From the IMG/VR virus record IMGVR_UViG_3300047554_000375: a stretch of DNA of 64,000 nucleotides; one strand, 5' to 3'. Each line of letters opens with the position of its first letter. The first letter of the stretch is position 1. This document shows, piece by piece, positions 9,032-37,792 of the stretch. The stretch comes from a virus (lineage: Duplodnaviria; Heunggongvirae; Uroviricota; Caudoviricetes). Under the pieces are notes generated by a model. It searched no databases. It was not told the DNA's origin and saw nothing but the letters and a program-made list of their open reading frames with translations. A program made the translations under genes and the position numbers.

Positions 9032-9060
9032 TTGACAACGGCATCGTTTCGTTGTAGAAT
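9032..9060 (+). promoter_or_regulatory. sigma70-type promoter TTGACA-N17-TAGAAT driving tRNA transcription
   Basis: hexamers and spacing. Confidence 0.65.
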
Positions 9061-9066
9061 ACAATC

Positions 9067-9092
9067 TGTTCTTTAAAAATTTGTAGAGTAAA
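9067..9092 (+). repeat. repeat A copy 1 (TGTTCTTTAAAAATTTGTAGAGTAAA)
   Basis: identical copy at 9881-9908 and inverted copy at 14731-14753. Confidence 0.8.
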
Positions 9093-9095
9093 TGT

Positions 9096-9169
9096 TGGGG
9101 GTTAGTTTAATGGTAGAACAACGGGTTTTGATCCCGTTGGCACAAGTTCGATTCTTGTACCCCTTACCA
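9096..9169 (+). tRNA. tRNA-Gln (anticodon TTG)
   Basis: manual cloverleaf fold: anticodon stem ACGGG/CCCGT, loop TTTTGAT, T-loop TTCGATT, encoded CCA; the 1-72 pair is unpaired (U-U). Confidence 0.7.
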
Positions 9170-9284
9170 TATAAAAACACATTATATCTGAAAAGATAAA
9201 AATTCTAGACAAGTAATCATATGTTGTTCGCGGATGCGTTAGATATCGGCGTAATCACGGCAGAGGTATAGTGTGTTTCTATAT

Positions 9285-9376
9285 GGAAAGTAATGCAGGT
9301 GCGATGGTGCGCCGACGGGCCTTGAAAACCCGGTTCTCAGAAATGGGATGGGGTTCGACTCCTCTGCTTTCCGCCA
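9285..9376 (+). tRNA. atypical long-variable-arm tRNA-like gene (Ser/Sec-like architecture, anticodon loop CTTGAAA, anticodon TGA)
   Basis: acceptor GGAAAGT/GCTTTCC plus G73-CCA, T-loop TTCGACT, long extra arm; D region folds as a 6-bp stem with a 4-nt loop; anticodon stem has only 4 bp. Confidence 0.5.
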
Positions 9377-9382
9377 AATTTT

Positions 9383-9470
9383 GGAGAGTTGGGTGAGTGG
9401 TTAAACCAGCAGTTTGCTAAACTGTCGTTTCGAAAGAGGCGCATCAGTTCGAATCTGATACTCTCCGCCA
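9383..9470 (+). tRNA. tRNA-Ser (anticodon GCT), long variable arm
   Basis: acceptor GGAGAGT/ACTCTCC, G73, CCA, anticodon loop TTGCTAA, T-loop TTCGAAT. Confidence 0.8.
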
Positions 9471-9477
9471 ATTAAGG

Positions 9478-9720
9478 ATGTTTATGTGGAAAGTTTATTT
9501 TGAAGATAATGAAATTCATGCGAGTGAATCATTAGTTGATGCATTAGAGTTTGCAAAATCACATTATGGTTTTGTTACTGTTAGTGATGGTCAACATGAA
9601 TTTGTAGGTAAGTTTGGATACGATGAAGTCAAAAACGGAAAATGTCCAGATGGTGTTAGTTATGATTGGACTATGCGGCGTGATGAAACACACCGAAGTT
9701 CAAGAAAAAAGTTAGTGTAG
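9478..9720 (+). CDS. hypothetical protein
   Basis: ORF with AAGGA RBS; stop codon overlaps the start of tRNA-Cys. Confidence 0.6.
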   Translation: MFMWKVYFEDNEIHASESLVDALEFAKSHYGFVTVSDGQHEFVGKFGYDEVKNGKCPDGVSYDWTMRRDETHRSSRKKLV

Positions 9721-9794
9721 CGGTGGCAGAGTGGTCAATTGCAACGGATTGCAAATCCGTAAAGCCGTGAGTTCAAATCTCACCCGCTACTCCA
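9717..9794 (+). tRNA. tRNA-Cys (anticodon GCA)
   Basis: acceptor GTAGCGG/CCGCTAC, anticodon loop TTGCAAA, T-loop TTCAAAT, CCA. Confidence 0.75.
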
Positions 9795-9827
9795 GTTGTT
9801 AAAAAACAACAACGATAAAAAAAGTTG

Positions 9828-9855
9828 TTGACAAATTTTGTGGTTGTGTTATACT
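9828..9855 (+). promoter_or_regulatory. sigma70-type promoter TTGACA-N16-TATACT
   Basis: hexamers. Confidence 0.65.
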
Positions 9856-9880
9856 ACATCCATGAGTTGAGAAATCAACA

Positions 9881-9908
9881 TGTTCTTTAAAAATTTGTAG
9901 AGTAAAAA
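9881..9908 (+). repeat. repeat A copy 2
   Basis: identical to 9067-9092. Confidence 0.8.
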
Positions 9909-9909
9909 T

Positions 9910-9984
9910 ACTCCGTTCGTCTATCGGTTAGGACACCGGGTTTTCAACCCGATAAGACCAGTTCGATTCTGGTACGGAGTACCA
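9910..9984 (+). tRNA. tRNA-Glu (anticodon TTC)
   Basis: acceptor ACTCCGT/ACGGAGT, loop TTTTCAA, T-loop TTCGATT, CCA. Confidence 0.75.
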
Positions 9985-10111
9985 TTTGTTTTGTTGTCGT
10001 AAGCCATGAGGTAAACGTCAACCTTGAGTAACTATGACAATAAACGGTAGGGTGGCCACCAATTCCGTTGAGACTTAGCAAATAGTGCGACAACAAAATA
10101 AATGGTAGAAT

Positions 10112-10186
10112 GCCTTGATAGCATAAAGGTAGTGCAGTCAACTCATAATTGATAAGGTACTGGTTCGAATCCAGTTCAAGGCACCA
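10112..10186 (+). tRNA. tRNA with anticodon CAT (elongator Met or Ile2-type)
   Basis: acceptor GCCTTGA/TCAAGGC, loop CTCATAA, T-loop TTCGAAT, CCA. Confidence 0.75.
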
Positions 10187-10193
10187 CCTATTT

Positions 10194-10268
10194 GGGTTCA
10201 TAACTTAACGGCTAAAGTAACTGGCTTTTAACCAGTAAATCAGAGTTCGATTCTCTGTGGACCTACCA
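10194..10268 (+). tRNA. tRNA-Lys (anticodon TTT)
   Basis: loop CTTTTAA, stem ACTGG/CCAGT, T-loop TTCGATT, CCA. Confidence 0.75.
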
Positions 10269-10278
10269 GATAAAATTT

Positions 10279-10364
10279 GGAGAGCGAGAAGCATTGGTGA
10301 CTTCAGGTGACTGTAAATCATCCGCCTTACGGTATACGGGGTTCGATTCCCTGGCTCTCCACCA
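10279..10364 (+). tRNA. tRNA-Tyr (anticodon GTA), long variable arm
   Basis: acceptor GGAGAGC/GCTCTCC, loop CTGTAAA, T-loop TTCGATT, CCA. Confidence 0.8.
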
Positions 10365-10433
10365 TTTTTGATTATTGTAGTGTGTCGGCTTGCTGATAAA
10401 CTTTAAGTAGAGATTACAATAATCATTTTATTT

Positions 10434-10508
10434 GCCTCGTTAATATAATGGCTATTATGCCCGCCTGTCCAGCGGAGAACAGGAGTTCGATTCTCCTACG
10501 AGGCGCCA
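10434..10508 (+). tRNA. tRNA-Asp (anticodon GTC)
   Basis: acceptor GCCTCGT/ACGAGGC, G73, loop CTGTCCA, T-loop TTCGATT. Confidence 0.7.
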
Positions 10509-10579
10509 GAGCAAACGACATGTATTTGTCCAACGGTTGTTAGTGACGATGGGTGATATCGGAACTATCAAAATTTTAT

Positions 10580-10654
10580 TCCACAGTAGCACAGCGGTAG
10601 TGCAGGAGACTGTTAATCTCTTGGTCGTAGGTTCGATCCCTGCCTGTGGAGCCA
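10580..10654 (+). tRNA. tRNA-Asn (anticodon GTT)
   Basis: D-stem GCAC/GTGC, loop CTGTTAA, T-loop TTCGATC, G73 CCA. Confidence 0.8.
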
Positions 10655-10658
10655 ATAT

Positions 10659-10735
10659 GCCCTGGTGACGGAATTGGTATACGTACTGGTCTTAGAAACC
10701 AGGTTCTGAGGGTTCGAGTCCCTCCTAGGGCACCA
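10659..10735 (+). tRNA. type-I (short variable loop) tRNA with leucine anticodon TAG
   Basis: perfect anticodon stem CTGGT/ACCAG, 7-nt loop CTTAGAA, T-loop TTCGAGT, A73, CCA; paralogous to 14570 and 14651. Confidence 0.7.
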
Positions 10736-10785
10736 GAGCCTCGCCTTAACTTGCGGCGTATAATAAGATAAGTAGTAAGTTATTT

Positions 10786-10860
10786 GGGCTGTTAGTGATA
10801 ATGGGAGCACATCGGTTTTGCACGCCGAAGGTAAGAGTTCGATTCTCTTACGGTCCACCA
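10786..10860 (+). tRNA. tRNA-Ala (anticodon TGC)
   Basis: acceptor GGGCTGT (G3-U70), loop TTTGCAC, T-loop TTCGATT, A73 CCA. Confidence 0.75.
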
Positions 10861-10867
10861 AATTTTT

Positions 10868-10941
10868 GCCCCTGTAGTTAAATGGTAGAACATCGGTTTT
10901 GTAATCCGAGGACGGGAGTTCGATTCTCTCTAGGGGCACCA
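10868..10941 (+). tRNA. tRNA-Thr (anticodon TGT)
   Basis: acceptor GCCCCTG/TAGGGGC, loop TTTGTAA, T-loop TTCGATT. Confidence 0.7.
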
Positions 10942-10948
10942 TTTTTAT

Positions 10949-11022
10949 CTCGGATTAGTTTAGTGGTAAAACTCGTGGTTTGGGACCATGGGTCGGAAGT
11001 TCGATTCTTCCATCCGAGACCA
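10949..11022 (+). tRNA. tRNA-Pro (anticodon TGG)
   Basis: acceptor CTCGGAT/ATCCGAG, D-stem GTTT/AAAC, loop TTTGGGA, T-loop TTCGATT. Confidence 0.75.
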
Positions 11023-11028
11023 TTTTAT

Positions 11029-11102
11029 AGCGGGTAGGTCAAGTGACCCGGCAGGTCTCATAAGCCTGACTGAGTGTGGAGCATTACCATGACCCGCTTC
11101 CA
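11029..11102 (+). other. degenerate tRNA-like element (pseudo-tRNA?)
   Basis: perfect 7-bp acceptor AGCGGGT/ACCCGCT plus T-CCA, but no canonical T-loop (AGCATTA) and no clean anticodon arm; internal duplication of GACCCG. Confidence 0.4.
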
Positions 11103-11107
11103 ATTTT

Positions 11108-11183
11108 GGTGATATAGTTCAATTGGTAGAACACCACCTTCATACGGTGACTGTTGGGAGTTCAAGTCTCTCTATCACCACCA
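11108..11183 (+). tRNA. second tRNA with anticodon CAT (Met/Ile2-type)
   Basis: acceptor GGTGATA/TATCACC, D-stem GTTC/GAAC, loop TTCATAC, T-loop TTCAAGT, CCA. Confidence 0.7.
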
Positions 11184-11236
11184 AAATTCTGAAAGATACG
11201 AAACTTATAAATAGTTCGTATCTTAAAGGAATAAAA

Positions 11237-11665
11237 ATGAAAACATGTTCGTGTTGTAATAATCTATTTTCTATAGAAGAATTTGCATTCAAGGATAAAA
11301 AATTGAATAAAAGAGTTGCCATGTGTAATGGTTGTAGAAAAGAGAGACAAAAACAGTCATATTATAAACATCATCAAACAAATTTGACTAGAGTAAAGAA
11401 TTACAAGAAACAAAACAAAGATTGGTTTCTGGAAATGAAGGAAACATTGTCTTGTTGTGTTTGTGGTGAATCTGAATCGTCATGTTTAGATTTTCATCAT
11501 ATAGATGAAAATGAAAAAGATTTTAATATCTCCGATTATTCGGAATCTAGTAAGAATAAACTTATTAGAGAGATTAATAAGTGTGCATGCCTATGTTCAA
11601 ATTGTCATAGGAAACATCATGCAGGAAAATTATTTGCGCCTTTGGTGAAACTGGATATCACATAA
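11237..11665 (+). CDS. HNH homing endonuclease
   Basis: RBS AAGGA; Cys-rich zinc-finger motifs and an HNH core (DFHHID...N...CSNCH); track start 11123 lies inside the tRNA, so ATG 11237 is used. Confidence 0.8.
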   Translation: MKTCSCCNNLFSIEEFAFKDKKLNKRVAMCNGCRKERQKQSYYKHHQTNLTRVKNYKKQNKDWFLEMKETLSCCVCGESESSCLDFHHIDENEKDFNISDYSESSKNKLIREINKCACLCSNCHRKHHAGKLFAPLVKLDIT

Positions 11666-11711
11666 GTCTACGAAATTTAGGTTGGGGATTCGAATTCCTC
11701 AGGGCGCACCA
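11636..11711 (+). tRNA. tRNA-Arg (anticodon ACG)
   Basis: acceptor GCGCCTT/AGGGCGC, loop CTACGAA, T-loop TTCGAAT, A73 CCA; the 5' half overlaps the last 30 nt of the HNH ORF. Confidence 0.7.
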
Positions 11712-11720
11712 AAAAAATTT

Positions 11721-11794
11721 ACCCGGATAGTTAAATGGTATAACGGTCGGCTGATAACCGGCTATCACAAGTTCGATTCTTGTTCTGGGTACCA
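11721..11794 (+). tRNA. tRNA-Ile (anticodon GAT)
   Basis: acceptor ACCCGGA/TCTGGGT, loop CTGATAA, T-loop TTCGATT. Confidence 0.75.
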
Positions 11795-11799
11795 AATGT

Positions 11800-11873
11800 A
11801 TCTCGTAAGTGTTACGGTAGCACATCAGTCTCCAAAACTGAGGGCCGGGGTTCGACTCCCTGACGGGGTGCCA
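11800..11873 (+). tRNA. tRNA-Trp (anticodon CCA)
   Basis: stem TCAGT/ACTGA, loop CTCCAAA, T-loop TTCGACT, G73 CCA. Confidence 0.7.
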
Positions 11874-11894
11874 GTTCGTTAGAAAAGGAATAAT

Positions 11895-12365
11895 ATGTAC
11901 AACGAAAAAATTGATTTAGAAGAAGTTAAAGCATACGTGGAAAATTGTGGTCCAGATACCAAAATTTATCTGGGTTGCGATTCTGAAAAAGTTAAGATTG
12001 GTAATGATTGGTACGCTGATTACATTATCGCCATCGTTGTGCATATTGACGGTAAACATGGTTGCAAAATCTTTGGTCAAATTACCAGAGAAAGAGACTA
12101 TGAAAAACAGCGCAATAAGCCTAGAATGCGGTTGATGAATGAAGTGTATAAAGTGGCTGATATGTACCTGCAATTGTCGGAAATGATTGCAAATGATATT
12201 GAAGTTCATCTTGACATTAACCCAAATCAACTATATAATTCTAGTATTGTTGTTAACGAAGCAGTAGGTTACATTAAGGGAATGTGTAATGTTGTGCCTT
12301 TGGTTAAGCCAAATGCATTCGCCGCTTCTTACGCCGCAGATAGATTGAAAAGTCTAGCGGCATAA
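11895..12365 (+). CDS. hypothetical protein (156 aa)
   Basis: ORF with RBS AAGGAA. Confidence 0.75.
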   Translation: MYNEKIDLEEVKAYVENCGPDTKIYLGCDSEKVKIGNDWYADYIIAIVVHIDGKHGCKIFGQITRERDYEKQRNKPRMRLMNEVYKVADMYLQLSEMIANDIEVHLDINPNQLYNSSIVVNEAVGYIKGMCNVVPLVKPNAFAASYAADRLKSLAA

Positions 12366-12453
12366 AACAGACCCCGATGACCATATCGTTAAATGGGCAC
12401 CAATTTGTTTCGGAATACACTGGTAAACATTAGTGTATTTCAAAATAAATTGC

Positions 12454-12482
12454 TTGACAAGTTGTTGTGACTATGTTACAAT
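12454..12482 (+). promoter_or_regulatory. sigma70-type promoter TTGACA-N17-TACAAT
   Basis: hexamers; it drives the ORF-free region. Confidence 0.65.
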
Positions 12483-12488
12483 AACAAC

Positions 12489-13380
12489 ATCAAGAAATTG
12501 AAATATGGTGGTTTAGCATCATAAGATAAGACAAGTGATTGTCCCAAAGGAGGTATGCCTACATAACTCCGCTAGAAATAGTCTATCTAAACAAGCCTGC
12601 TCACTATCGAAAGGTAGCAATCACTGATAAGACCGGTGGTTGTAACAATGACGCTGGATGTTGTGGAAAGAATTATTGGCTCAAGCGCCCGCAAGGGTAA
12701 CGCAAGTCATTAGAGAGTAACGGGTGGTGCCGACCTCACAACGAAACCAATCCAGTTAATTGGTATGAGAAAGGGTAGCGTATTTGTCCGAGATGTTGCA
12801 GTTAAGGGCTCATATGCAGTTTTAATGGTTGATGGAGGTATGCGAAAGCCGAGACCCGACATTAATCGTGAAAAACGACTGAGTAGTTCGCAAGACAAAA
12901 GGTACGTGGTGTGTTGTATTCTGTATTACAAAATAGTATGGAGCAACTGTGTCAGCACATCGCAGTAGGTTGATATAGCTCATTTGGTAGAGCATCTGTA
13001 TTGTCCACAGACGGCAGTTGGTTCGATTCCAACTATCTTAACGAAAACGCAAAGACTGACACGGTCATAGATGAAGAACATCTAATACTTGAGTGGTAAC
13101 ACAATCAAGTCAGACGTAACTCGCAAGGTGAAATCTGTTTATGATAGAAGTTTCGTAACTACTTAGCGGTAGTGAATGGCTCTAAAGGTCAACGGAGAAT
13201 AAATCGTAGAGTAATTTATGGCGACAAGACTAATGCCTGTCTTTCAAAACGGCGATGTTGACAGCAGACTAGATTACTATGCAAATAGAATTTAGTGGAA
13301 GTCGGAAGAAAGTAGACTCGCAAGGTTTACAATAATGTCCGAGGTGTTGTTCGGTAAGCATGTATTCTCAGTGCACCAAT
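12489..13380 (+). ncRNA. ORF-free transcribed region, candidate structured RNA(s)
   Basis: no ORF above 67 aa on either strand, a consensus promoter upstream, recurrent C-GCAA-G (GNRA) hairpin motifs, and an embedded defective tRNA-like element. Confidence 0.35.
12967..13040 (+). other. tRNA-like element with disrupted acceptor stem (Thr TGT-like body)
   Basis: canonical D-arm GCTC/GAGC, anticodon stem TCTGT/ACAGA with loop ATTGTCC, T-arm GTTGG-TTCGATT-CCAAC, but the 3' acceptor strand carries a 2-nt bulge and no CCA. Confidence 0.4.
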
Positions 13381-13382
13381 AT

Positions 13383-13456
13383 GCGGGATTAGTTTAGTGG
13401 CAAAACGCTATCCTTCCAAGTTAGAGTTATCAGTTCGATTCTGATATCCCGCTCCA
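13383..13456 (+). tRNA. tRNA-Gly (anticodon TCC)
   Basis: acceptor GCGGGAT/ATCCCGC, loop CTTCCAA, T-loop TTCGATT, CCA. Confidence 0.75.
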
Positions 13457-13587
13457 TATAAAAACATTCTTGACGGTGTATGTATCGCACTGAAACTAGC
13501 GGTAACTGCATCGGTGCCTCTGGCAGGGTGCGAAAAGTTAATGTGCCAGCATTGACGAATTATTAAGTGTGTTTCTATATGGATTTT

Positions 13588-13661
13588 GCGGGTATGATGT
13601 AAAGGTAACCTGAAACCTTGCCAAGGTTTATTTGCGAGTTCGATTCTCGCTACCCGCTCCA
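13588..13661 (+). tRNA. tRNA-Gly (anticodon GCC)
   Basis: acceptor GCGGGTA/TACCCGC, stem AAACC/GGTTT, loop TTGCCAA, T-loop TTCGATT. Confidence 0.75.
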
Positions 13662-13666
13662 ATTAT

Positions 13667-13741
13667 GGAGTTATTAGTTTAGTGGTAAAACCACGGGTTG
13701 TGATTCCGTTATCACGAGTTCGATTCTCGTATAACTCCCCA
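13667..13741 (+). tRNA. tRNA-His (anticodon GTG) with G-1
   Basis: acceptor GAGTTAT/ATAACTC, extra 5' G opposite C73, loop TTGTGAT. Confidence 0.75.
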
Positions 13742-13748
13742 AAAAAAT

Positions 13749-13823
13749 GCCTCGTTAACTCAGCGGTAGAGTAACTCTTTTACACGGAGAAGGTCGGCAG
13801 TTCAATCCTGTCACGAGGTACCA
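13749..13823 (+). tRNA. tRNA-Val (anticodon TAC)
   Basis: acceptor GCCTCGT/ACGAGGT, loop TTTACAC, T-loop TTCAATC. Confidence 0.7.
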
Positions 13824-13826
13824 TTT

Positions 13827-13900
13827 GCTTCCATAGTATAGTGATAATACACGCCCTTGGTACGGGCGAGCCCTGAGTTTGATTCTCGGTGGAAGCACCA
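13827..13900 (+). tRNA. tRNA-Thr (anticodon GGT)
   Basis: acceptor GCTTCCA/TGGAAGC, stem CGCCC/GGGCG, loop TTGGTAC. Confidence 0.75.
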
Positions 13901-13901
13901 T

Positions 13902-13977
13902 GCAACTTTAGCTGATGTGGTCATAGCGGTGGTCTGAAGAACCATTGAAAGAGGTTCGATTCCTCTAGGTTGCACCA
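13902..13977 (+). tRNA. tRNA-Phe (anticodon GAA)
   Basis: acceptor GCAACTT/AGGTTGC, loop CTGAAGA, T-loop TTCGATT. Confidence 0.75.
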
Positions 13978-13995
13978 TTTTATTAGGAGTTTAAC

Positions 13996-14568
13996 ATGCC
14001 AGCAGTTTTTCTTGTAAGTGACACACACTTCGGTCACGCTGGTGTGTGTAGATTCACCGACTCAACAACAGGTGAAAAAATTAGACCATGGACTGATCCA
14101 GATGAAATGGATGAGGCAATGGTAAAGCGTTGGAATGAAACGGTAAGACCAAATGATAAAGTATATCATCTTGGTGATGTTGTTATCAATCGTAAAGCAC
14201 TTTCAATTATGAGTAGACTTAACGGCGATAAGGTTCTTATTCGTGGTAACCATGATATCTTCCGTGATGATGAATATAGACAATACTTCCGTGAACTTCG
14301 TGCATATCATGTAATGAACGGAATGATTCTTTCACATATTCCAATTCACGAAGCCAGTCTTGGTCGTTTTGGTACTAACATTCATGGACACCTTCATACT
14401 GGTCGTGTGATGACAGGCATTAAAAATTCTAAGGTTGATGTGAGATATCACTGTGTTTGCGTTGAACAAACAGATTTTCGTCCTATTCTTTTTGAAGATG
14501 TTATCAAACGAATCAAAGATGAAGGTGGTGAAGTCGGTTTCAAAAACGGAAACGGACCAACAATGTGA
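13996..14568 (+). CDS. calcineurin-like metallophosphoesterase
   Basis: N-terminal VSDTHFGH, GDxxD, GNHD motifs. Confidence 0.85.
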   Translation: MPAVFLVSDTHFGHAGVCRFTDSTTGEKIRPWTDPDEMDEAMVKRWNETVRPNDKVYHLGDVVINRKALSIMSRLNGDKVLIRGNHDIFRDDEYRQYFRELRAYHVMNGMILSHIPIHEASLGRFGTNIHGHLHTGRVMTGIKNSKVDVRYHCVCVEQTDFRPILFEDVIKRIKDEGGEVGFKNGNGPTM

Positions 14569-14569
14569 T

Positions 14570-14646
14570 GCGGTTGTGACGGAATTGGTATACGTATCGG
14601 ACTTAAAATCCGAGTTCTGAGGGTTCGACTCCCTCCTTCCGCACCA
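14570..14646 (+). tRNA. type-I tRNA with leucine anticodon TAA; acceptor stem has two U-U mismatches
   Basis: stem TCGGA/TCCGA, loop CTTAAAA, T-loop TTCGACT, A73 CCA; acceptor GCGGTTG vs CTTCCGC; backbone TGACGGAATTGGTATACGT shared with 10659. Confidence 0.6.
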
Positions 14647-14650
14647 ATTT

Positions 14651-14727
14651 GCCCTTATGACGGAATTGGCATACGTGTTTGATTCAAAATCAAAATTTTG
14701 TGAGTTCGAATCTCACTTTGGGCACCA
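14651..14727 (+). tRNA. type-I tRNA with leucine anticodon CAA; acceptor stem has two U-U mismatches
   Basis: stem TTTGA/TCAAA, loop TTCAAAA, T-loop TTCGAAT, A73 CCA; acceptor GCCCTTA vs TTTGGGC. Confidence 0.6.
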
Positions 14728-14730
14728 TAA

Positions 14731-14753
14731 TTACTCTACAAATTTTTAAAGAA
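14731..14753 (-). repeat. repeat A copy 3 (inverted orientation)
   Basis: reverse complement of TTCTTTAAAAATTTGTAGAGTAA, abutting tRNA-Arg(TCT). Confidence 0.8.
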
Positions 14754-14756
14754 TAG

Positions 14757-14831
14757 CTGGCGTTAGTATAATGGATAATACAGTAGGCTTCTACCCTTCT
14801 GATGGGAGTTCGATTCTCTCACGCCGGACCA
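14757..14831 (+). tRNA. tRNA-Arg (anticodon TCT)
   Basis: acceptor CTGGCGT/ACGCCGG, D-stem GTAT/ATAC, loop CTTCTAC, T-loop TTCGATT. Confidence 0.7.
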
Positions 14832-28646: not shown

Positions 28647-30200
28647 ATGAAAGATGAAAAAAATCCGAACAACTTTAATCCAGTTAATTCGGTAACTATT
28701 TTTGGTGGCGGTACTGCTGGTTGGATAACAGCACTCTCACTAACAGTTCAATGTCCACAATTAGCAATCACACTAATCCAACCCAAGTCACATTCGGTTA
28801 TAGGTGTTGGTGAATCCACACAACCAGACTTACTGCAACTCCTCAATAAAGCGGGAATTCCTATAGGCGAATTTATTCGTGAGTGTGATGCCACTGCAAA
28901 ATGTGGTATTTACTATGAAGATTGGTATGATATTGGAACACACTTTTGGCATCCATTTACGGACATGGCAAACAGTGAAGTCAACTACACCCTCGCACAT
29001 CATTATCAACAATTGATGTTGAAATATCCAGAAAAATACACACACGAAGATTATTATGATGCGGTGCATCCGTCTTATGATGTTTGTGTAACACATAAAA
29101 AAGTTGATGGAAAAAACGCTGCCGCACTTCATGTTGATGCCGACAAGATGCATAAATTTTTGCGTGAAAGACTTGATAATGTTACTGTATATGAGCCCGA
29201 AACTATTGAAGTTGTTTCCGAAGACAGTCAAGAAATACGATTCATTGATTGTGATGGTGTAAAAGTTGGCGGTGATTTGTTTATTGATTGTACAGGCTTC
29301 AATCGTGTTTTGATGCAACATTTAAATAATGTTGATGAAGATGCAAAAGAATACTATCACGAAAATGTTGAATCTGCAATCTTTGCAAGAATTCCTTACA
29401 TTGACCGTGAAAAAGAAATGTTGCCTTACACCAAAGCACATGCACAAAAACATGGCTGGATTTGGACAATTCCTCTATTCAGTCGCATAGGCTCAGGCTA
29501 TGTTTACACGAAAAATTCGTGTACTGCCGATGAAGCAGAAAAACAATTCCGTGAGTATTGGGGCGTTGAAAGAATGAAAGATGTTCCAATAAAGCATTTA
29601 GAATTTAAAAGCGATTCTTTAAAGCAACCATGGAAGAATAATGTTGTTGCTATCGGTCTAAGTTCTGGTTTTGTTGAACCTCTAGAGGCAACTGGTATTA
29701 ATTGGATTGTTACTGCGGCAAATAATTTATCTGCCGTTTTAGCGAGAAAATATTATGACCAACATGTTATTGATTTTTACAATTCTGGCATGAGTAACTA
29801 TGTCTCAGATGTTCAAGATTTTATTGATGTTCACTATAAACTTTCCAATAGAAAAGATTCTGTTTTATGGAACTATCATACAGTAAGAGGACATAATCCT
29901 AGATTGTATAGAAAATTGGAAGTCTATGGCACAGAAATGCCTGCGAAATGGAATAGACCTAGACATATGCCTTGGGCTTTCAATGAAGTTTCTTGGATTG
30001 ATATTTTGAATGGATACAAATTTAAATTTGAGGTTCAAGATATCAATGACGAGACTGTAGCAAGAATGCAGAAAGAATTCGCAAGAATTCGCTCTCTGAA
30101 AAAAGGAAGAGCGGATCATTGTTTAACACCATACGATTTTATTAAAGAAATACATGATACAAATAACAACACGCCAGTGGAAGAATTACCAAACAAATAA
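28647..30200 (+). CDS. flavin-dependent (tryptophan-type) halogenase
   Basis: N-terminal GGGTAGW FAD motif and the signature GWIWTIPL (WxWxIP) motif. Confidence 0.85.
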   Translation: MKDEKNPNNFNPVNSVTIFGGGTAGWITALSLTVQCPQLAITLIQPKSHSVIGVGESTQPDLLQLLNKAGIPIGEFIRECDATAKCGIYYEDWYDIGTHFWHPFTDMANSEVNYTLAHHYQQLMLKYPEKYTHEDYYDAVHPSYDVCVTHKKVDGKNAAALHVDADKMHKFLRERLDNVTVYEPETIEVVSEDSQEIRFIDCDGVKVGGDLFIDCTGFNRVLMQHLNNVDEDAKEYYHENVESAIFARIPYIDREKEMLPYTKAHAQKHGWIWTIPLFSRIGSGYVYTKNSCTADEAEKQFREYWGVERMKDVPIKHLEFKSDSLKQPWKNNVVAIGLSSGFVEPLEATGINWIVTAANNLSAVLARKYYDQHVIDFYNSGMSNYVSDVQDFIDVHYKLSNRKDSVLWNYHTVRGHNPRLYRKLEVYGTEMPAKWNRPRHMPWAFNEVSWIDILNGYKFKFEVQDINDETVARMQKEFARIRSLKKGRADHCLTPYDFIKEIHDTNNNTPVEELPNK

Positions 30201-30774
30201 TTCAATTAAACCGGATTGGACAAAAAACACTCAAGTCTCGACATGTCCCGGCTTGATGAATTATGTTACGGAAGGATTAGTTGTCCTTTGTCCAGATGAT
30301 TTCGAATTCGAAACTGCTGACGGAAAACTTATTCACTGGAGCGCAACTTCCGAAAACAATTTGATTCCACACTATTACTGGCAAGCAGACATTGTAAATC
30401 CTGGTCACACAATCGTAAAGTTTGACACAGGAATTATGTTGAAGCATGTGGAAGAACACAGATTGTTTTGTTTATTATCAGACTATGAGCCTATGAATCC
30501 GGCAATCAAAGTTATGCCTGCCGTTTTTCCTCTGTTAGATGTTTGGTCTCCAGTTATGATGAATACTGTTTGGCGAGATGGTATTCATAAAGTTAAAAAG
30601 GGTGATCCTCTTGCAAGAATATTCCTATCATACTATGGTGATTTTGAATATGAATATGCAGGTGAAACGAACTATCTCAAACAAGCCGAAGAATGGCTCA
30701 AGTTGAAAGAGGAACCAAATATACTAACTGCTTTCAATAAAGAAATGAAGAAATGTCCTTTCCACAATAAATGA
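30154..30774 (+). CDS. hypothetical protein (cluster member)
   Basis: ORF track; the start may be further downstream (47-nt overlap with the halogenase). Confidence 0.55.
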   Translation: MIQITTRQWKNYQTNNSIKPDWTKNTQVSTCPGLMNYVTEGLVVLCPDDFEFETADGKLIHWSATSENNLIPHYYWQADIVNPGHTIVKFDTGIMLKHVEEHRLFCLLSDYEPMNPAIKVMPAVFPLLDVWSPVMMNTVWRDGIHKVKKGDPLARIFLSYYGDFEYEYAGETNYLKQAEEWLKLKEEPNILTAFNKEMKKCPFHNK

Positions 30775-30775
30775 T

Positions 30776-31870
30776 ATGCACTACTATTCTGAAGATGGTA
30801 CGATATTCATGTCGAAAGTTAGGGCATTAGAGTATGGTAGAAAAAAACAACAGAAAATAAACTTCTATTACTATGATGATGTTTATAGTAAATGTGACTG
30901 GACTACAGAACCATCTGAAAGTTTGGAATATTACTATAAAGAGCAAGCACAAAGAATCCGTGATAACTATGATTATCTGATTCTTTGCTACTCTGGTGGA
31001 GCAGATTCGACAAACATTTTAGAGACTTTCCACTTTAATGGTATCAAACTTGATAAAATTATTACAGTTGGTGCTTTAAGTAAAGATCCAGAATATGGCT
31101 CAGATAAAAATCATAATGGTGAACTTTATCATAATGTTTTTCCATATATCAAAGAATTGGGTTTAGAATCAATCACAGAGGTAATTGACTACACAAAATT
31201 TTTTGATGATATCAACAGTCTATCAATCGTACAATATCAGGATGAATGGATCGACATTGTTGGTCCATGGTACAGTCCACATCACTGGTTCTGGAGAGAT
31301 TTGGAAAAACATGTTGTTCCTAAAAATATAGGCAACAAACGAGTTGCCATAATTTTTGGTAAAGATAAGCCAGGTCTATTCTACGGAAAGACAAATAAAC
31401 CAGATGTTATCTTACCGAGCGGAAATACCATGCTGAATGGATTCAACTTCAAAGATACCCCGTGTTCAGATTATGGTAACTTAAACTTACCGTACGGTTA
31501 TACAAATATTGATAGAGTTAATTTTTATTGGGATCCAACTTATCCACAGATACTTTTGAAACAATTACATGTTTTAAAAAATCATTATGTAATAACACAT
31601 TCAACATCATACGATCCATTCTTAGGGTCACAGATGTTTGGTGGAAAAATGACGGATCATATTGTTTACAATCTGAAAAGACCTTTGGTTTTTAAATCAC
31701 CAAAAAGTATCACTCCCATTATAAGTTTGAGGGACGATTTTCTGAAGGACAGTAAAGATTCGGATGTTTTTAAACTGCATGATGCTGGTATAAAAAAGAT
31801 GAAGATGCATATTGATTTGAATGAATTGGTGACAATCAATTCTAAATTTTATAATATTCTAAAAGGATAA
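30776..31870 (+). CDS. PP-loop ATP pyrophosphatase superfamily protein (paralog A)
   Basis: LILCYSGGADS (SGGxDS) motif; N-terminal region is paralogous to 36029-37228. Confidence 0.75.
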   Translation: MHYYSEDGTIFMSKVRALEYGRKKQQKINFYYYDDVYSKCDWTTEPSESLEYYYKEQAQRIRDNYDYLILCYSGGADSTNILETFHFNGIKLDKIITVGALSKDPEYGSDKNHNGELYHNVFPYIKELGLESITEVIDYTKFFDDINSLSIVQYQDEWIDIVGPWYSPHHWFWRDLEKHVVPKNIGNKRVAIIFGKDKPGLFYGKTNKPDVILPSGNTMLNGFNFKDTPCSDYGNLNLPYGYTNIDRVNFYWDPTYPQILLKQLHVLKNHYVITHSTSYDPFLGSQMFGGKMTDHIVYNLKRPLVFKSPKSITPIISLRDDFLKDSKDSDVFKLHDAGIKKMKMHIDLNELVTINSKFYNILKG

Positions 31871-31871
31871 T

Positions 31872-32714
31872 TTGATGTTTAAGAATAAGGTGCCTAAATT
31901 TTTTGGGCACATATCCGCACTAAAAGATGGTAATTTAGTTTTGCCGGATTTCATATTGAACAATGGTGAAGATGGCGTAAATTTAATGCACCGATATTGT
32001 CCACATAGAATGTATCCTATGCATACTCCTGGAGAAATTGTACAGGAAGTTAGTTGTAAATTTCACAATTTCAGATGGGACAAAAATGGAGTTCCACTCA
32101 ATAATGATAAGAAACTACATTGTGGTAAAATAACAACAGGTCGCAGTGGTGTTTTGTTTAGAGATTTTATTGAACCTGACCACAAATGGGTTGATGATTT
32201 GTCGAATGAGAAAAATTTGAAATATAGTCATTCACTGGAAGGTCAGAGTGAAGGAAGTTGGCTGTGGTTATTGGATGCTGAAGCCGATTTACTCCATGTT
32301 TACGAGGATGGTATTCATCCGTTCTTGTCGAAACAAGTTAAGATAGAAGATATTCAAATGGATCAAGGTGATGGTTGGATTCTACAAACACATCCGACTG
32401 GTTGGTGGTTGTATGTTTTTCCATTCTTGTTCATTGAATACTCACCAGGTTGTGTGATGATAAACAATGTCATACCAAACGATATCAATACTGAGTTTGG
32501 TTTCAAGTGGATATCACAGTTCTATTATGATGATAGTGTTGATGTGGGTGCTAGAAGAATCTTTGAAACTTGCGAAGAAGTTTTTTGTGAGGATGTTCAA
32601 ACAGCAGAGTTACAAAAAGGTAAATACTTTCCTCTGATGAAGGCGATGAACAGATATGAGGATCATTGTGTTCATCTAGGAAAATGGTACAGAGAAAATG
32701 TTAACAAAGAATAA
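31872..32714 (+). CDS. Rieske [2Fe-2S] domain protein, oxygenase-like
   Basis: CPH-X16-CKFH Rieske motif; downstream DLLH...EDGIH resembles a mononuclear iron site. Confidence 0.75.
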   Translation: MMFKNKVPKFFGHISALKDGNLVLPDFILNNGEDGVNLMHRYCPHRMYPMHTPGEIVQEVSCKFHNFRWDKNGVPLNNDKKLHCGKITTGRSGVLFRDFIEPDHKWVDDLSNEKNLKYSHSLEGQSEGSWLWLLDAEADLLHVYEDGIHPFLSKQVKIEDIQMDQGDGWILQTHPTGWWLYVFPFLFIEYSPGCVMINNVIPNDINTEFGFKWISQFYYDDSVDVGARRIFETCEEVFCEDVQTAELQKGKYFPLMKAMNRYEDHCVHLGKWYRENVNKE

Positions 32715-33513
32715 TTGGTTATACACCAATCTAGCGGATAGATTTACAAATCCTGCTTCCGATTTTAATATGGGTATAAACTTATATCCGTTTAAACATA
32801 TGACTTTTCAGGAAGCCGCTGATTATACTTGCATGGAGATTGTAAAAAATTACGACAATCTTTTTCTTGCGTTCAGTGGTGGCATGGACTCAGATTTCGT
32901 TTTGCGTTGCTTTCACAGAAATAATATTGCTATTAAACCAATCATCGTTGTCTGTGGTAAACAGATTGAAAATGAGTATGCATATAGATTGTGTGATGAA
33001 CTAAAGATAGAACCCATAATTATTGAAATTACCGAAGAGCAATTCATATACTTTTACAGAGAACACATTTATAAAAAGTTTAATGGAGTAGGATATAATG
33101 CATCACAAGTCTTGGTGGCTGCCGAATTAGTTGAAAAAGAAGGTGGTACATTAATAACAGGAAATCACTTTATGGGTGATGGTGATGATATGATAACCGA
33201 TGAAGTTTATCTGATATCGAATGAGTGGGACTTCTATACAGACTACTGTTTTACAGGATGTAAAAATATAGACTTCTTTCTCTACACACCAGAGATTGCA
33301 TATGCTATGATGCCTGATGAAAACATCACATGGAATAGACACAAAGAAAAAATATTTCAAATTCCATATAGAGATAAAATGCGTCCAGTTTATTCTGAGG
33401 AGACCACTGCTGAGGTGAGAAGAATGGCCAGAAACAGGATTCCTCTAAAGAAGACTGGTGAAGTTTGGACTAAGAATAAATTCCTAAATGTTTTCGATAA
33501 ATATAAATTTTAA
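32698..33513 (+). CDS. PP-loop ATP pyrophosphatase superfamily protein (divergent third copy)
   Basis: LAFSGGMDSD motif. Confidence 0.7.
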   Translation: MLTKNNWLYTNLADRFTNPASDFNMGINLYPFKHMTFQEAADYTCMEIVKNYDNLFLAFSGGMDSDFVLRCFHRNNIAIKPIIVVCGKQIENEYAYRLCDELKIEPIIIEITEEQFIYFYREHIYKKFNGVGYNASQVLVAAELVEKEGGTLITGNHFMGDGDDMITDEVYLISNEWDFYTDYCFTGCKNIDFFLYTPEIAYAMMPDENITWNRHKEKIFQIPYRDKMRPVYSEETTAEVRRMARNRIPLKKTGEVWTKNKFLNVFDKYKF

Positions 33514-33522
33514 GGAACATTT

Positions 33523-33867
33523 ATGCCTAAAATCATAAAAACTATTACCAACAAATCCAACAATAAGGCTTGGATCAACACAAACGAGTATCAAAATTAT
33601 TTCACTCAAGAGCAGATAGATGGAATTATTAATCCATATACAGACTATGTTCAAAGTTTGCCAGGTTTCATTTCTGTTAATATTGAAGAAACATCAAATA
33701 CATTAGTGATTACTCACGAATTTGATACACAGGAAAATTTAGAGGTCGCATTAAACAATCTTGGTGGTCCAAATGTCAACTCTATCGTTGTTATGAGAAA
33801 TACACTTTTCACAGAAAAGTTACAGGGACTCGGAGCAAATTCTACTTTAACTATAACCTTTGAATAA
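33523..33867 (+). CDS. hypothetical protein (cluster member)
   Basis: ORF track. Confidence 0.6.
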   Translation: MPKIIKTITNKSNNKAWINTNEYQNYFTQEQIDGIINPYTDYVQSLPGFISVNIEETSNTLVITHEFDTQENLEVALNNLGGPNVNSIVVMRNTLFTEKLQGLGANSTLTITFE

Positions 33868-33870
33868 TTT

Positions 33871-35163
33871 ATGTTTAGTCGTGATACATATTGTATTTTG
33901 CCATGGTCATCAATACAAATAAATCCATCAGGAGATTATAAAATTTGTTGTTTCTCTGGAGTGACTGGAGAAAATCACGGAATGGCGATTGACTCTGATG
34001 GAAAAGTGATGAATGTTATGACACATTCAATAAAAGAAGCATTGAATAGTGAAAATCATAAACAATTAAGATTGTCACAATCGAAAAATGAGAGAAATCC
34101 TTTATGCAAAGTTTGTTGGGATAGGGATGATGCCAACAAAAATAATGCAAGAACAACATCATTAAGATTCTTTAGGACATTCGACCAATTACCAGGACTA
34201 GATAATGCAGTAACATTGGAGAAGGCATCCGGTGTTATGGCTAATGATGGTTCAATTGATGAGTTTCCTATTAGTTTGGATTTGAGATTTACTAATGTCT
34301 GCAATATGAAGTGTATCATGTGCAGTTCGAAATATAGTAATCAATGGTATGAAGATGAAGAAAAACTGTATGGAACAAATTTCATGCATGTGGATCCATC
34401 ACTAAAATATAACATCATAGTGAAAAATGGAGTTTATAAATCTGACATGCCTGTTTGGCATGATTCTGACGCATGGTGGAAAAATTTTGATGACATTAAA
34501 CACAGAATACGACACCTTTATCTGACAGGCGGAGAACCGTTTATAGTTAAAGGACATGATGTTCTCTTAGACAAACTAATTGAGTTGAATTTGGCTTCCA
34601 ACATTATCTTGGAATATGATACAAATCTTAGTGTAATCAACGACAAAATATTGAATAGACTAAAGCAGTTCAAAGAAGTTATTTTATCTGTTAGTTGTGA
34701 CGATGTTGATGAACAATATGAGTTGATAAGATTTCCTGGAAAATTCAGCAACATGACTAAAAATTTACAGTTGTTGAAGGACAGAGATTTTGAGATAAGA
34801 CATTTGTCCACTTGTATAGGAATTTATTCTATATTTTCTCCACTTAGACTTCGTGATAAATTTCCTGAATATAAATTATCACTTAGAATGTTGAGAGCAC
34901 CATTTCATTCTGATATAATGTATTTGCCTAAAAGTGCTAAAGAGGAAGTCATTCGTGTCTATAGAGAATCTAATATCGAAGATAGGTGGAAGAACTTTGT
35001 TATTTCATATTTGGAAAATAATATGAATACATTTCCAGATAAAGAATGTGTTGATATGACAAAACAGCACATTAACTATCTAAATAAATTGGATGAGATT
35101 CGTGGTACAGATTGGAAAAAAACATTTCCTGATGTTGTTAAATTATTAGAAAGATGCTTATGA
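33871..35163 (+). CDS. radical SAM enzyme with N-terminal Cys-rich extension
   Basis: CNMKCIMC (CX3CX2C) and LYLTGGEPF motifs; additional CxxC pairs near the N-terminus. Confidence 0.8.
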   Translation: MFSRDTYCILPWSSIQINPSGDYKICCFSGVTGENHGMAIDSDGKVMNVMTHSIKEALNSENHKQLRLSQSKNERNPLCKVCWDRDDANKNNARTTSLRFFRTFDQLPGLDNAVTLEKASGVMANDGSIDEFPISLDLRFTNVCNMKCIMCSSKYSNQWYEDEEKLYGTNFMHVDPSLKYNIIVKNGVYKSDMPVWHDSDAWWKNFDDIKHRIRHLYLTGGEPFIVKGHDVLLDKLIELNLASNIILEYDTNLSVINDKILNRLKQFKEVILSVSCDDVDEQYELIRFPGKFSNMTKNLQLLKDRDFEIRHLSTCIGIYSIFSPLRLRDKFPEYKLSLRMLRAPFHSDIMYLPKSAKEEVIRVYRESNIEDRWKNFVISYLENNMNTFPDKECVDMTKQHINYLNKLDEIRGTDWKKTFPDVVKLLERCL

Positions 35164-36032
35164 AAATTAAAATGATGTTATTGAGTTTATTGTTGTCGTT
35201 GAATGTGAATGCACAAACAACAGTAATTTTGCCTGTTGGCTCTGGTGGTTTGATTCACAAATATGCACTTGAGATGCAACCATTCTTCAACAAAACATTG
35301 GATGGTGTTGTGTATGATTTGAAACCTGGTGCAGGTGGTGTTATTGGCGCCGCTGCCCTCGCTGAGAATAAGACAGAAAAAATGGTTCTACTATTTGGTC
35401 CTGTACAAAACTGGCCAACTAATCCATTGACAGATATGATTCCTGTAGCATATATGGGAACAATTCCTGGTGTGATTTTTACTAAACAAAACACCAAATA
35501 TTCAAACTTCAAAGAAGTTATGGAATATGCTAAAACAAATTCTGTTTCATATGGAGTTCCTGGCGCAAGTAATAATGGTAAATTGATCCGCAGTATGGTA
35601 GAAAAATATAGCACACCGAAGAATGTTATTGAAGTCCCTTATAAAAGTGGTGCGATGATTACAACGGATGTTGTAGGTGGTCACTTAGAAATTGGTGTGT
35701 CGATTCCAAATAATATAAATCAATATATTGATGAAAATAAGTTGACTGCTTTAGGTGTTTTTGCCGCACAGCGTTCGCATTATTTGCCTAATGTGCCAAC
35801 ATTACGAGAACAGGGTTTGTCCATTCCTCAAGACTATAAGTATTTCAACAATGTTTTCTTGTTTGCAAATAAGACTGCTAATCCACAAGATGTTGAAAAA
35901 TTGCGTAAAGCAATCGTAGAATTTATGCGTAGCGATGAATCTTTGGAAGTCAGAAAGAGAATGGATATTAGTTTCGGCAAACAAAGTATTTCATCACCAG
36001 AAAAGTATATCAGAGAAATTATTACAGAATGA
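35154..36032 (+). CDS. secreted Bug/TctC-family-like solute-binding protein
   Basis: signal peptide; KPGAGGVIGAAALAE region resembles the tripartite tricarboxylate receptor family. Confidence 0.6.
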   Translation: MLMKIKMMLLSLLLSLNVNAQTTVILPVGSGGLIHKYALEMQPFFNKTLDGVVYDLKPGAGGVIGAAALAENKTEKMVLLFGPVQNWPTNPLTDMIPVAYMGTIPGVIFTKQNTKYSNFKEVMEYAKTNSVSYGVPGASNNGKLIRSMVEKYSTPKNVIEVPYKSGAMITTDVVGGHLEIGVSIPNNINQYIDENKLTALGVFAAQRSHYLPNVPTLREQGLSIPQDYKYFNNVFLFANKTANPQDVEKLRKAIVEFMRSDESLEVRKRMDISFGKQSISSPEKYIREIITE

Positions 36033-37228: not shown

Positions 37229-37452
37229 TGAGATATTATATTCGCTACAATGTTGACCATAAAAATGGTAAAAGTGACTTGCCATGGAAAGTATTTGAAT
37301 CCGAAGATAAATTTTACTTGACAAGAAATGTAATTCTCTATACAATATCATGGACTGGTGACACACCGTTTCCTGACGGTGGTTTCAAGTACAGCATCTA
37401 TTGTGATGGAAAAATGACTTCTTGTGATGAGAATGAAATTGTGATAGAATAA
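37228..37452 (+). CDS. hypothetical protein
   Basis: ORF track, ATGA overlap. Confidence 0.55.
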   Translation: MRYYIRYNVDHKNGKSDLPWKVFESEDKFYLTRNVILYTISWTGDTPFPDGGFKYSIYCDGKMTSCDENEIVIE

Positions 37453-37454
37453 AT

Positions 37455-37785: not shown

Positions 37786-37792
37786 AGATAAT

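Follow-up and report, generated by a model that had tools for sequence, protein, structure and literature searches.

The 64,000-nucleotide stretch of IMG/VR virus record IMGVR_UViG_3300047554_000375 analysed here (Duplodnaviria; Heunggongvirae; Uroviricota; Caudoviricetes; hereinafter designated the window) encodes three tRNAs with the leucine anticodons UAG, UAA and CAA, all of which lack the long variable arm that is the hallmark of class II tRNAs. The three genes are very probably functional type I leucine decoders that would be charged by the host leucyl-tRNA synthetase (LeuRS), with both the loss of the arm and a pair of U:U mismatches in two of the acceptor stems being tolerated. Their fold, conservation, family membership and match to the codon usage of the phage are directly observed, and we infer their expression and their charging by host LeuRS.

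Three leucine tRNA genes share a type I cloverleaf

The three genes lie on the forward strand:

10659..10735 (+), tRNA-Leu(UAG), type I; ARAGORN (tag); Rfam tRNA model, 61.3 bits
14570..14646 (+), tRNA-Leu(UAA), type I; ARAGORN (taa); Rfam tRNA model, 58.6 bits
14651..14727 (+), tRNA-Leu(CAA), type I; ARAGORN (caa); Rfam tRNA model, 55.7 bits

Each gene is 77 nt long in the ARAGORN prediction and belongs to the Rfam tRNA family RF00005, for which the gathering score is 29. Covariance-model scoring and ARAGORN, which a preliminary description of the window had named as checks on folding, both recognise all three loci as tRNAs. Read base by base, the genes share one layout, in which a 7-bp acceptor stem is followed by U8 and G9 and by a 3-bp D stem (ACG/CGU) with G13·A22. 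The D loop is AAUUGG(U/C)AU, or, with one flanking base on each side, the 11-nt GAAUUGG(U/C)AUA. Position 26 then leads into an anticodon arm of five perfect base pairs and a 7-nt loop, followed by a variable loop of 5 nt (GUUCU in the UAG and UAA species, AUUUU in the CAA species) and by a normal T arm with a 5-bp stem and a UUCGA-type loop, and each gene ends with A73 and an encoded CCA. The D region is the exact string TGACGGAATTGG(T/C)ATACGT in every copy, and the UAA and CAA copies are 82% and 71% identical to the UAG copy (repeat family D4). The preliminary description had thus read the short variable loops, the near-identical D region, the perfect anticodon stems with TAG, TAA and CAA loops, and A73 correctly.

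The acceptor stem of tRNA-Leu(UAG) is fully paired (U5-A68, G6-U67), its cloverleaf lies at most 0.3 kcal/mol from the minimum free energy (MFE), and an identical copy of the gene is present in contig L056. For none of the three tRNAs is the cloverleaf the predicted MFE structure; unmodified tRNA sequences commonly have an MFE fold that is not the cloverleaf, so this is not counted against them. The anticodon loop of tRNA-Leu(UAG) is CUUAGAA with A37 (10691-10697), so no m1G37 is expected. The CUN-reading leucine tRNAs of E. coli carry G37, with a host loop of TTTAGGT (PMC12482277).

The window tRNAs belong to a widespread short-arm family

The window's own D-arm string, TGACGGAATTGGYATACGT, is present at no fewer than 120 IMG/VR loci in an exact search, and the family sample, seeded with this string, was drawn from 120 such loci. 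Among the matches listed, the string lies in 119 tRNAs, every one with a leucine anticodon (tag 98, caa 13, taa 3, cag 3, aag 2; ARAGORN), and 115 of the 119 are exactly 77 nt long. A 77-nt query against cultured phages matched 270 records, from phages of Salmonella, Escherichia, Acinetobacter, Vibrio, Proteus, Aeromonas, Xanthomonas and other hosts. Tequintavirus T5_ev212 is among them, with a 77-nt gene annotated plainly as tRNA-Leu, and the same architecture is found in Escherichia phage OSYSP and Xanthomonas phage X1. The window copies align without gaps with the genes of T5, OSYSP and Xanthomonas X1 and with 50 metagenomic members, and they have the structural features of this T5-type short-loop family and of type I tRNA-Leu: a length of ~74 nt before the CCA, a variable loop of 5 nt with U48 as its last base, a leucine-type D arm, A73 and a leucine anticodon.

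Across 185,579 species genomes the D-arm string occurs at only 60 loci. About 39 of these are short-arm tRNA-Leu, and about 14 are ordinary class II tRNA-Leu of 82-87 nt (in Saccharibacteria, Paceibacterota, Wolbachia and others); the string is therefore part of a genuine tRNA-Leu D arm. Bacterial type I tRNA-Leu thus extends beyond Streptomyces, and the short-arm form is mainly a trait of phages and mobile arrays. Stand-alone 77-nt short-arm tRNA-Leu(CAG) genes lie in the chromosomes of Lutispora isolates and of related Clostridia metagenome-assembled genomes (MAGs) (L163, L175 and ~25 other loci, including Clostridiaceae). Dense bacterial tRNA arrays with short-arm tRNA-Leu occur in Achromobacter anxifer, a Burkholderiales MAG, Nostoc, Aerosakkonema and Christensenella (L170, L173, L127, L150 and L158), and the Achromobacter anxifer array holds 32 tRNAs in 8 kb. 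A search with the T5 tRNA-Leu against 5,426 E. coli genomes gave no match, with a query too short for that database.

The preliminary description had set the window genes against a class II tRNA-Leu in bacteria and T4. This holds as a general rule, and a 2023 review describes tRNA-Leu as long-armed everywhere except in animal mitochondria (PMC9976931). The rarity implied for the short form does not hold, given T5, OSYSP, X1, hundreds of phage records and contigs, the bacterial arrays and the Clostridia. In the literature we found no description of the phage short-arm family and no bacterial type I tRNA-Leu besides that of Streptomyces coelicolor; for the phage family an older report is possible, for example in the T5 tRNA work of the 1980s. 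Short-arm tRNA-Leu is thus an under-described form that is common in phages, T5 included, and not unique to this one. The features particular to the window are only that all three of its isoacceptors are short-armed and that two of them have a double U:U mismatch.

Covariation supports a co-adapted class I-like core

Covariation was measured in a gapless alignment of 53 diverse members of 77 nt, among them T5 and all three copies from the window. In this sample 98.6% of cells are paired in the type I cloverleaf, and changes on both sides are seen in 19 of the 20 pairs. The covariation score is 0.855 vs 0.225 in shuffled alignments, none of 500 shuffles reaching the observed value, and controls with the pairing partners slid by 1-3 columns score 0.10-0.17.

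Tertiary contacts vary in concert as well. Among 88 unique members, pair 26:44 is G·A in 45 and A·G in 34, and the 9:12:23 triple switches jointly between G-G-C (79 members) and A-C-G (9 members), while 15:48 is A:U in all 88. Also invariant are U8, A14, A15, G18, G19, A20a, A22, U33, A35 and U48, together with G53, T54, T55, C56, A58, C61, A73 and CCA; C2-G71 is kept in 84 members and A37 in 86. The core of the family is therefore co-adapted and class I-like rather than that of a damaged class II tRNA. The window copies do not have the marks of tRNA pseudogenes: the invariant positions are kept, and the two U:U pairs are the sole breaks.

Leucine identity elements are retained

The identity set of E. 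coli LeuRS comprises A73, A14, the A15-U48 Levitt pair, G18G19, A20a and D/T tertiary pairs (U54:A58), with C2-G71 acting as an antideterminant against seryl-tRNA synthetase; the enzyme needs neither the anticodon nor the long variable arm, and arm-less variants stay active (PMC9976931). Every identity element in that set is invariant across the 88 family members, and all three window genes have A73, the leucine-type D arm and A15:U48. What they lack is a class II arm (a stem-loop of >10 nt), which is replaced by the 5-nt loop. For the wobble methylase TrmL, too, it makes no difference if the entire arm is deleted (PMC4615657).

Within the loci sampled, 135 of 163 unique tRNA-Leu have the leucine-type D-arm layout, vs 10 of 1414 other tRNAs. 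On inspection these ten have ordinary 4-bp D stems and are false positives of a loose pattern. None of the 1577 unique tRNAs combines a leucine body with a foreign anticodon. Nor do the window genes look like suppressors or recoding tRNAs, as UAG, UAA and CAA read CUN, UUR and UUG, all of them leucine codons.

A preprint reports that in E. coli a 'bacteriophage-derived (GenBank ID MF402939.1) tRNALeu(CGA)' causes TCG to be read as leucine (PMC13596443). The accession belongs to the Tequintavirus OSYSP, an Escherichia phage, in whose tRNA region ARAGORN finds only two tRNA-Leu genes (TAG and TAA), both 77 nt and in register with the window copies. Because these are the only leucine tRNAs found there, the construct, the sequence of which is absent from the preprint, would be one of the two short-arm family genes of OSYSP. 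A family member would then be leucylated by E. coli LeuRS whatever its anticodon, and by analogy host LeuRS may be expected to charge the window tRNAs.

Tandem U:U pairs are conserved in the UAA and CAA copies

The acceptor strands are GCGGUUG/CUUCCGC in the UAA copy and GCCCUUA/UUUGGGC in the CAA copy, so that U5:U68 and U6:U67 are present in both, as the preliminary description had noted. Acceptor stems are fully paired in 80 of the 88 unique members. U:U at 5:68 or 6:67 accounts for seven of the eight exceptions; both together occur only in the window lineage, and a single U:U at one of these positions recurs in at least four other lineages. Relatives of tRNA-Leu(UAA) form a stepwise series from the paired GCGGAUG/CAUCCGC (L026), which is probably the ancestral state, through GCGGAUG/CUUCCGC with one U:U (L025) to the two U:U pairs of the window.

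In L003, a relative 96.6% identical to the window, both U:U tRNAs are 100% identical to those of the window (0/154 nt differ vs a background of 3.4%), and twelve other tRNAs likewise show 0-1 differences. The U:U copies thus appear to be under purifying selection. The cloverleaf of tRNA-Leu(UAA) lies at most 0.8 kcal/mol from the MFE. In E. coli K-12, leuV (tRNA-Leu(CAG); L186, 580-666) has an A5·C68 mismatch where the phage copies have one of their two U:U pairs. In our view the U:U pairs are weak pairs that are tolerated and maintained by selection, and they do not mark decay.

The tRNAs match leucine codon usage

The window has a GC content of ~38%, and the leucine codons in 59 open reading frames (ORFs) are TTG 0.38, TTA 0.20, CTT 0.15, CTA 0.14, CTG 0.08 and CTC 0.05. 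The UAA and CAA tRNAs cover 58% of these codons and the UAG tRNA covers the CUN box, so that the three are matched to the UUG/UUA/CUA-rich usage of the phage. Recoding was examined by aligning a halogenase-like ORF with 150 diverse homologues from representatives clustered at 50% identity. Leucine is the commonest aligned residue at CTA (0.80, 5 sites), TTG (0.46, 9 sites) and TTA (0.24, 9 sites) codons, and the alignment gives no hint of another codon meaning.

Variable-region lengths form a continuum in phage leucine tRNAs

The variable regions of phage tRNA-Leu form a continuum of 5 nt (91 unique), 6 nt (10), 7, 9, 10 and 11-21 nt, all ending in U48, and the cores of short-arm tRNAs reach 82-86% identity with those of long-arm phage tRNA-Leu that carry the same anticodon. 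This pattern suggests repeated arm losses within each isoacceptor lineage. Short and long tRNA-Leu are mixed in 27 of 63 large arrays; others, including the window and the 74%-identical L097, have short forms only. In the same 63 arrays tRNA-Ser is always 86-96 nt long. Short tRNA-Leu beside long tRNA-Ser fits a rule by which the arm is lost only where the synthetase has no use for it, and neutral shrinkage suffices to account for the arm-loss data.

Comparison with known short-arm and long-arm leucine tRNAs

The leucine tRNAs of T5 and OSYSP are the closest counterparts in architecture. They share with the window copies the length of 77 nt with encoded CCA, the 3-bp D stem, the 11-nt GAAUUGGYAUA D loop, the 5-nt variable loop ending in U48, A73 and, in the UAG species, the CUUAGAA loop; their invariant positions agree, and they are annotated as tRNA-Leu without comment. 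The phages themselves differ, T5-like phages being siphovirus-like Demerecviridae and the window, to judge from its baseplate genes, a distant T4-like myovirus, for which no close cultured relative was found. The D stem is AUG/CAU in T5 and ACG/CGU in the window, and T5 has its U:U in the anticodon stem rather than in the acceptor stem. Unlike T5 and OSYSP, the window has all three isoacceptors, CAA included, two of them with tandem U:U.

The type I tRNA-Leu(CAA) of S. coelicolor, a cellular housekeeping gene of one genus, compared here by description, also has a 5-nt variable loop, and the LeuRS that charges it is of the normal bacterial type (Fan et al. 2019, PMC6614811). In that system the minimum loop is five nucleotides including position 48, and U8-A14 is important; A73 is not used, and charging relies on the leucine-specific domain, a LeuRS feature peculiar to Streptomyces, in what the authors regard as a rare recognition mechanism (PMC6614811). 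In contrast, the identity set retained in the phage family is of the E. coli type, and at least one tRNA of the family is functional in E. coli. The invariance of A73 argues for the E. coli-type recognition rule over the Streptomyces-type one.

E. coli leuV (87 nt) has a nearly identical D arm, with G13·A22, A14, A15:U48, G18G19, A20a, A73 and C2-G71 in common with the phage tRNAs (alignment: TGGCGGAATTGGTAGACGC vs TGACGGAATTGGTATACGT). The only length difference is one clean 10-nt gap in the variable arm, which is 15 nt in leuV and 5 nt in the window tRNAs, with U48 kept. As CUN readers the two differ at position 37, G in leuV and A in the phage UAG species. Engineered arm-less E. coli tRNA-Leu variants, in which the arm is dispensable for LeuRS (PMC9976931) and for TrmL (PMC4615657), resemble the phage tRNAs; they are laboratory constructs, whereas the core of the phage family is natural and co-adapted and shows tertiary covariation of its own. 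Animal mitochondrial tRNA-Leu likewise has a short variable loop and bases its identity on A73 and A14 (PMC9976931). It has degenerate D and T loops and a dedicated mitochondrial LeuRS, whereas the phage tRNAs have canonical G18G19 and T-loop.

The tRNA island and neighbouring elements

The following features accompany the three genes:

9096..14831 (+), tRNA island with the three leucine tRNAs; 27 ARAGORN calls, one of them inside GOLLD; all on the + strand
9285..9376 (+), class II tRNA-Ser(UGA)-like gene; tRNA-Sec model, 33.7 bits (hit 9285-9372); not called by ARAGORN
9383..9470 (+), tRNA-Ser(GCU), 88 nt, long variable arm kept (internal control); ARAGORN
10279..10364 (+), tRNA-Tyr(GUA), 86 nt, long variable arm kept (internal control); ARAGORN
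9032..9060 (+), sigma-70-type promoter candidate, TTGACA-17-TAGAAT; near-consensus match at the island head
13996..14568 (+), phosphoesterase ORF; Pfam Metallophos; phrog_547, 8e-49

ARAGORN and Rfam at the gathering threshold find no other tRNA-Leu anywhere in the 64-kb window, which extends to the whole window the earlier statement that the island lacks a class II tRNA-Leu. An overlooked long-arm tRNA-Leu would have overturned that statement, and the search for one yielded a single extra class II candidate, at 9285-9376. It has the anticodon loop CUUGAAA (UGA), G73, a 16-nt variable arm and an extended D arm. It is conserved in another viral contig, L001, where the homologue (14148-14240) is called as a 93-nt tRNA-Ser(tga). 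Its UGA anticodon and G73 and the L001 call rule it out as a missed tRNA-Leu. An 8-bp acceptor stem is possible in this gene, and only the tRNA-Sec model matches it.

Near-consensus sigma-70-type promoter candidates stand ahead of the tRNA clusters, with further ones at 9828-9855, 12211-12239 and 12454-12482 (11-12 of 12 matches). They are matches to the sigma-70-type consensus alone, with a putative function. One base separates the stop codon of the phosphoesterase ORF from the start of tRNA-Leu(UAA), and the two are probably co-transcribed. A 37-nt repeat, 89% identical at 9056-9092 and 9870-9906 (+; …TTCTTTAAAAATTTGTAGAGTAAA), lies directly downstream of two promoter candidates and just before tRNA-Gln and tRNA-Glu, and may be a shared leader. 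Two spacers of ~120-135 nt, at 9166-9284 and 13453-13587 (+), each between two tRNAs, have conserved ends (CCATATAAAAAC ... AGTGTGTTTCTATATGGA) and may represent a small RNA or an element involved in processing.

GOLLD RNA (RF02032) has a full-length match in mid-island, at 12906-13374 (+; 185 bits vs a gathering score of 150). The element probably reaches upstream to ~12490, near the promoter candidate at 12454-12482, and the ARAGORN 'tRNA-Thr(tgt)' at 12970-13040 falls within it as a tRNA-like element. The island also contains an HNH endonuclease gene (11237-11665, +; phrog_2255, 1e-28). Between L003 and the window, tRNA-Leu(UAG) (10659-10735, 18 differences) and tRNA-Gly(UCC) (13383-13456, 17 differences) are divergent alleles. 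Because these two diverge while twelve other tRNAs show 0-1 differences, the comparison suggests that single tRNA genes have been exchanged in cassette-like fashion.

Outside the island, a permuted two-piece tmRNA with the tag ANDEKFALAA lies at 37410-37807 (+), scoring 136.9 bits with the betaproteobacterial and 125.3 bits with the permuted tmRNA model. As it resembles betaproteobacterial two-piece tmRNA, it offers a hint of a betaproteobacterial host. A run of unusual genes at 28647-37228 (+), in a stretch of lower GC (0.34-0.35), encoding tryptophan-halogenase-like (8e-93), Rieske-domain, radical SAM/SPASM and TctC-like receptor proteins, may be a small-molecule or peptide-modification cluster. 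The gp6-like protein (53710-55782) has 7,826 metagenome homologues at E<=1e-20, many of them 67-72% identical and on contigs of ~150-170 kb; the phage belongs to an abundant uncultured T4-like group.

Discussion

The favoured reading, that the window genes are ordinary leucine decoders, can be set out as follows. The long variable stem-loop of a tRNA-Leu body would have been replaced by a 5-nt loop, a loss tolerated because leucine charging needs nothing from the arm; the serine and tyrosine tRNAs of the island would keep theirs because their synthetases use them. The genes would be transcribed from the host-type promoters of the phage island, and the transcripts processed as for other tRNAs and leucylated by host LeuRS, all identity elements having been kept. 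Together they would read UUG, UUA and CUN, the leucine codons preferred by the phage in its AT-rich genome. The tandem U:U would be a tolerated weak spot, at a place where leucine tRNAs commonly deviate from Watson-Crick pairing, without sign of inactivation.

Several points weigh against this reading. E. coli LeuRS could not charge the type I tRNA-Leu(CAA) of S. coelicolor (PMC6614811), so acceptance of a short-arm leucine tRNA is not automatic. By nearest-neighbour energies, the tandem U:U is ~4.6 kcal/mol less favourable than A-U pairs would be, and the cloverleaf of tRNA-Leu(CAA) lies 5.6 kcal/mol above the MFE, so that this species could be a poorer tRNA. The recoding test covers one protein, with only 5-9 sites per codon. 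Seeding with the window's D-arm string inflates the invariance of the D arm, and the same invariants are found in 32 co-resident 77-nt tRNA-Leu without the exact string.

The preliminary description had left open whether the genes are a non-canonical leucine-decoding family, diverged or inactivated copies, or tRNAs of another identity. Covariation, the identity elements, leucine-only anticodons, the codon match and the OSYSP result support the first, and the other two are not borne out. That the UAA and CAA copies are decaying or poorly functional paralogues, with only the UAG copy sound, is improbable. In favour of decay, two adjacent non-canonical pairs stand in a 7-bp stem, at the cost just given; the double mismatch is confined to the window lineage among the 88 unique members, at the end of the series from paired through one to two U:U, and the CAA cloverleaf is well above the MFE. 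Yet both copies score 55-59 bits on the tRNA model, keep all invariant family positions, are unchanged at 0/154 nt against L003 where the rest has diverged by 3.4%, and read UUG and UUA, 58% of the leucine codons. They also differ from each other in a compensatory manner at 3:70, 4:69 and 7:66, so the rest of each stem has been maintained. Repairing the U:U in silico leaves the MFE gap of the CAA copy at 5.4 kcal/mol; the gap therefore stems from its AU-rich anticodon stem and not from the mismatches. Finally, a non-Watson-Crick 5:68 pair is found in the major tRNA-Leu of E. coli, and single U:U pairs in at least four other lineages. Far less credible still is charging with another amino acid, by which the phage would mischarge or recode CUA and UUR. 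The class II hallmark is indeed absent, and some LeuRS enzymes, that of E. coli among them, reject one natural type I tRNA-Leu, as noted above. Against this, the complete LeuRS identity set is invariant, while the marks of other synthetases are missing, with no G3:U70, for example (3:70 is C-G, G-C or U-A). Anticodons across the family are leucine-only, and no leucine body carries a foreign one. Translation with the standard code matches known proteins well (for example 1e-161 to a baseplate wedge family), leucine is the top residue at CTA, TTG and TTA sites, and the OSYSP tRNA of this family still delivers leucine in E. coli when its anticodon is one for serine. An identity other than leucine is strongly disfavoured.

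A further possibility, compatible with ordinary decoding, concerns why the arm was lost: a tRNA without it would sustain the decoding of leucine codons when the host's class II tRNA-Leu is disabled by an arm-recognising defence or toxin. We consider such adaptive loss unlikely, if somewhat less so than decay. Members of the family are found chiefly in the tRNA islands of phages and in mobile tRNA arrays of bacteria, the length continuum and the core identity of 82-86% suggest repeated independent losses, and the ~10 nt saved per gene are negligible for a genome of ~165 kb. Among known enzymes, MenT3 needs tRNA-Ser's variable loop and weakly modifies tRNA-Leu (PMC11541572), eukaryotic SLFN11 is described as preferring type II tRNAs in work cited in PMC13462974, and phage tRNAs are reported to rescue infection from tRNA-targeting defences. 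However, the arm is retained in every array by tRNA-Ser (86-96 nt), for which arm-dependent targeting is better documented, 27 of the 63 large arrays mix short and long leucine tRNAs, no defence or counter-defence gene is linked to the tRNAs in the window, and neutral shrinkage accounts for the same data. We know of no defence system that targets tRNA-Leu through its arm, and this counts against adaptive loss as well. A more specific version, slightly more doubtful, holds that repeated, selected arm loss is an escape from arm-reading toxins and immune nucleases, which tRNA-Leu could undergo because LeuRS needs no arm and tRNA-Ser could not, and that the U:U pairs at 5:68 and 6:67 are part of the evasion, for example of acceptor-stem enzymes.

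As leucine decoders, the window genes should be annotated as ordinary working leucine tRNAs. They are one instance of a broader exception that takes in phage islands including that of T5, mobile bacterial arrays and some Clostridia. The short-arm family is a natural experiment on the role of the class II arm and offers a testable link to tRNA-targeting defences. It may also add to the efficiency of phage-derived leucine tRNAs as tools for codon reassignment.

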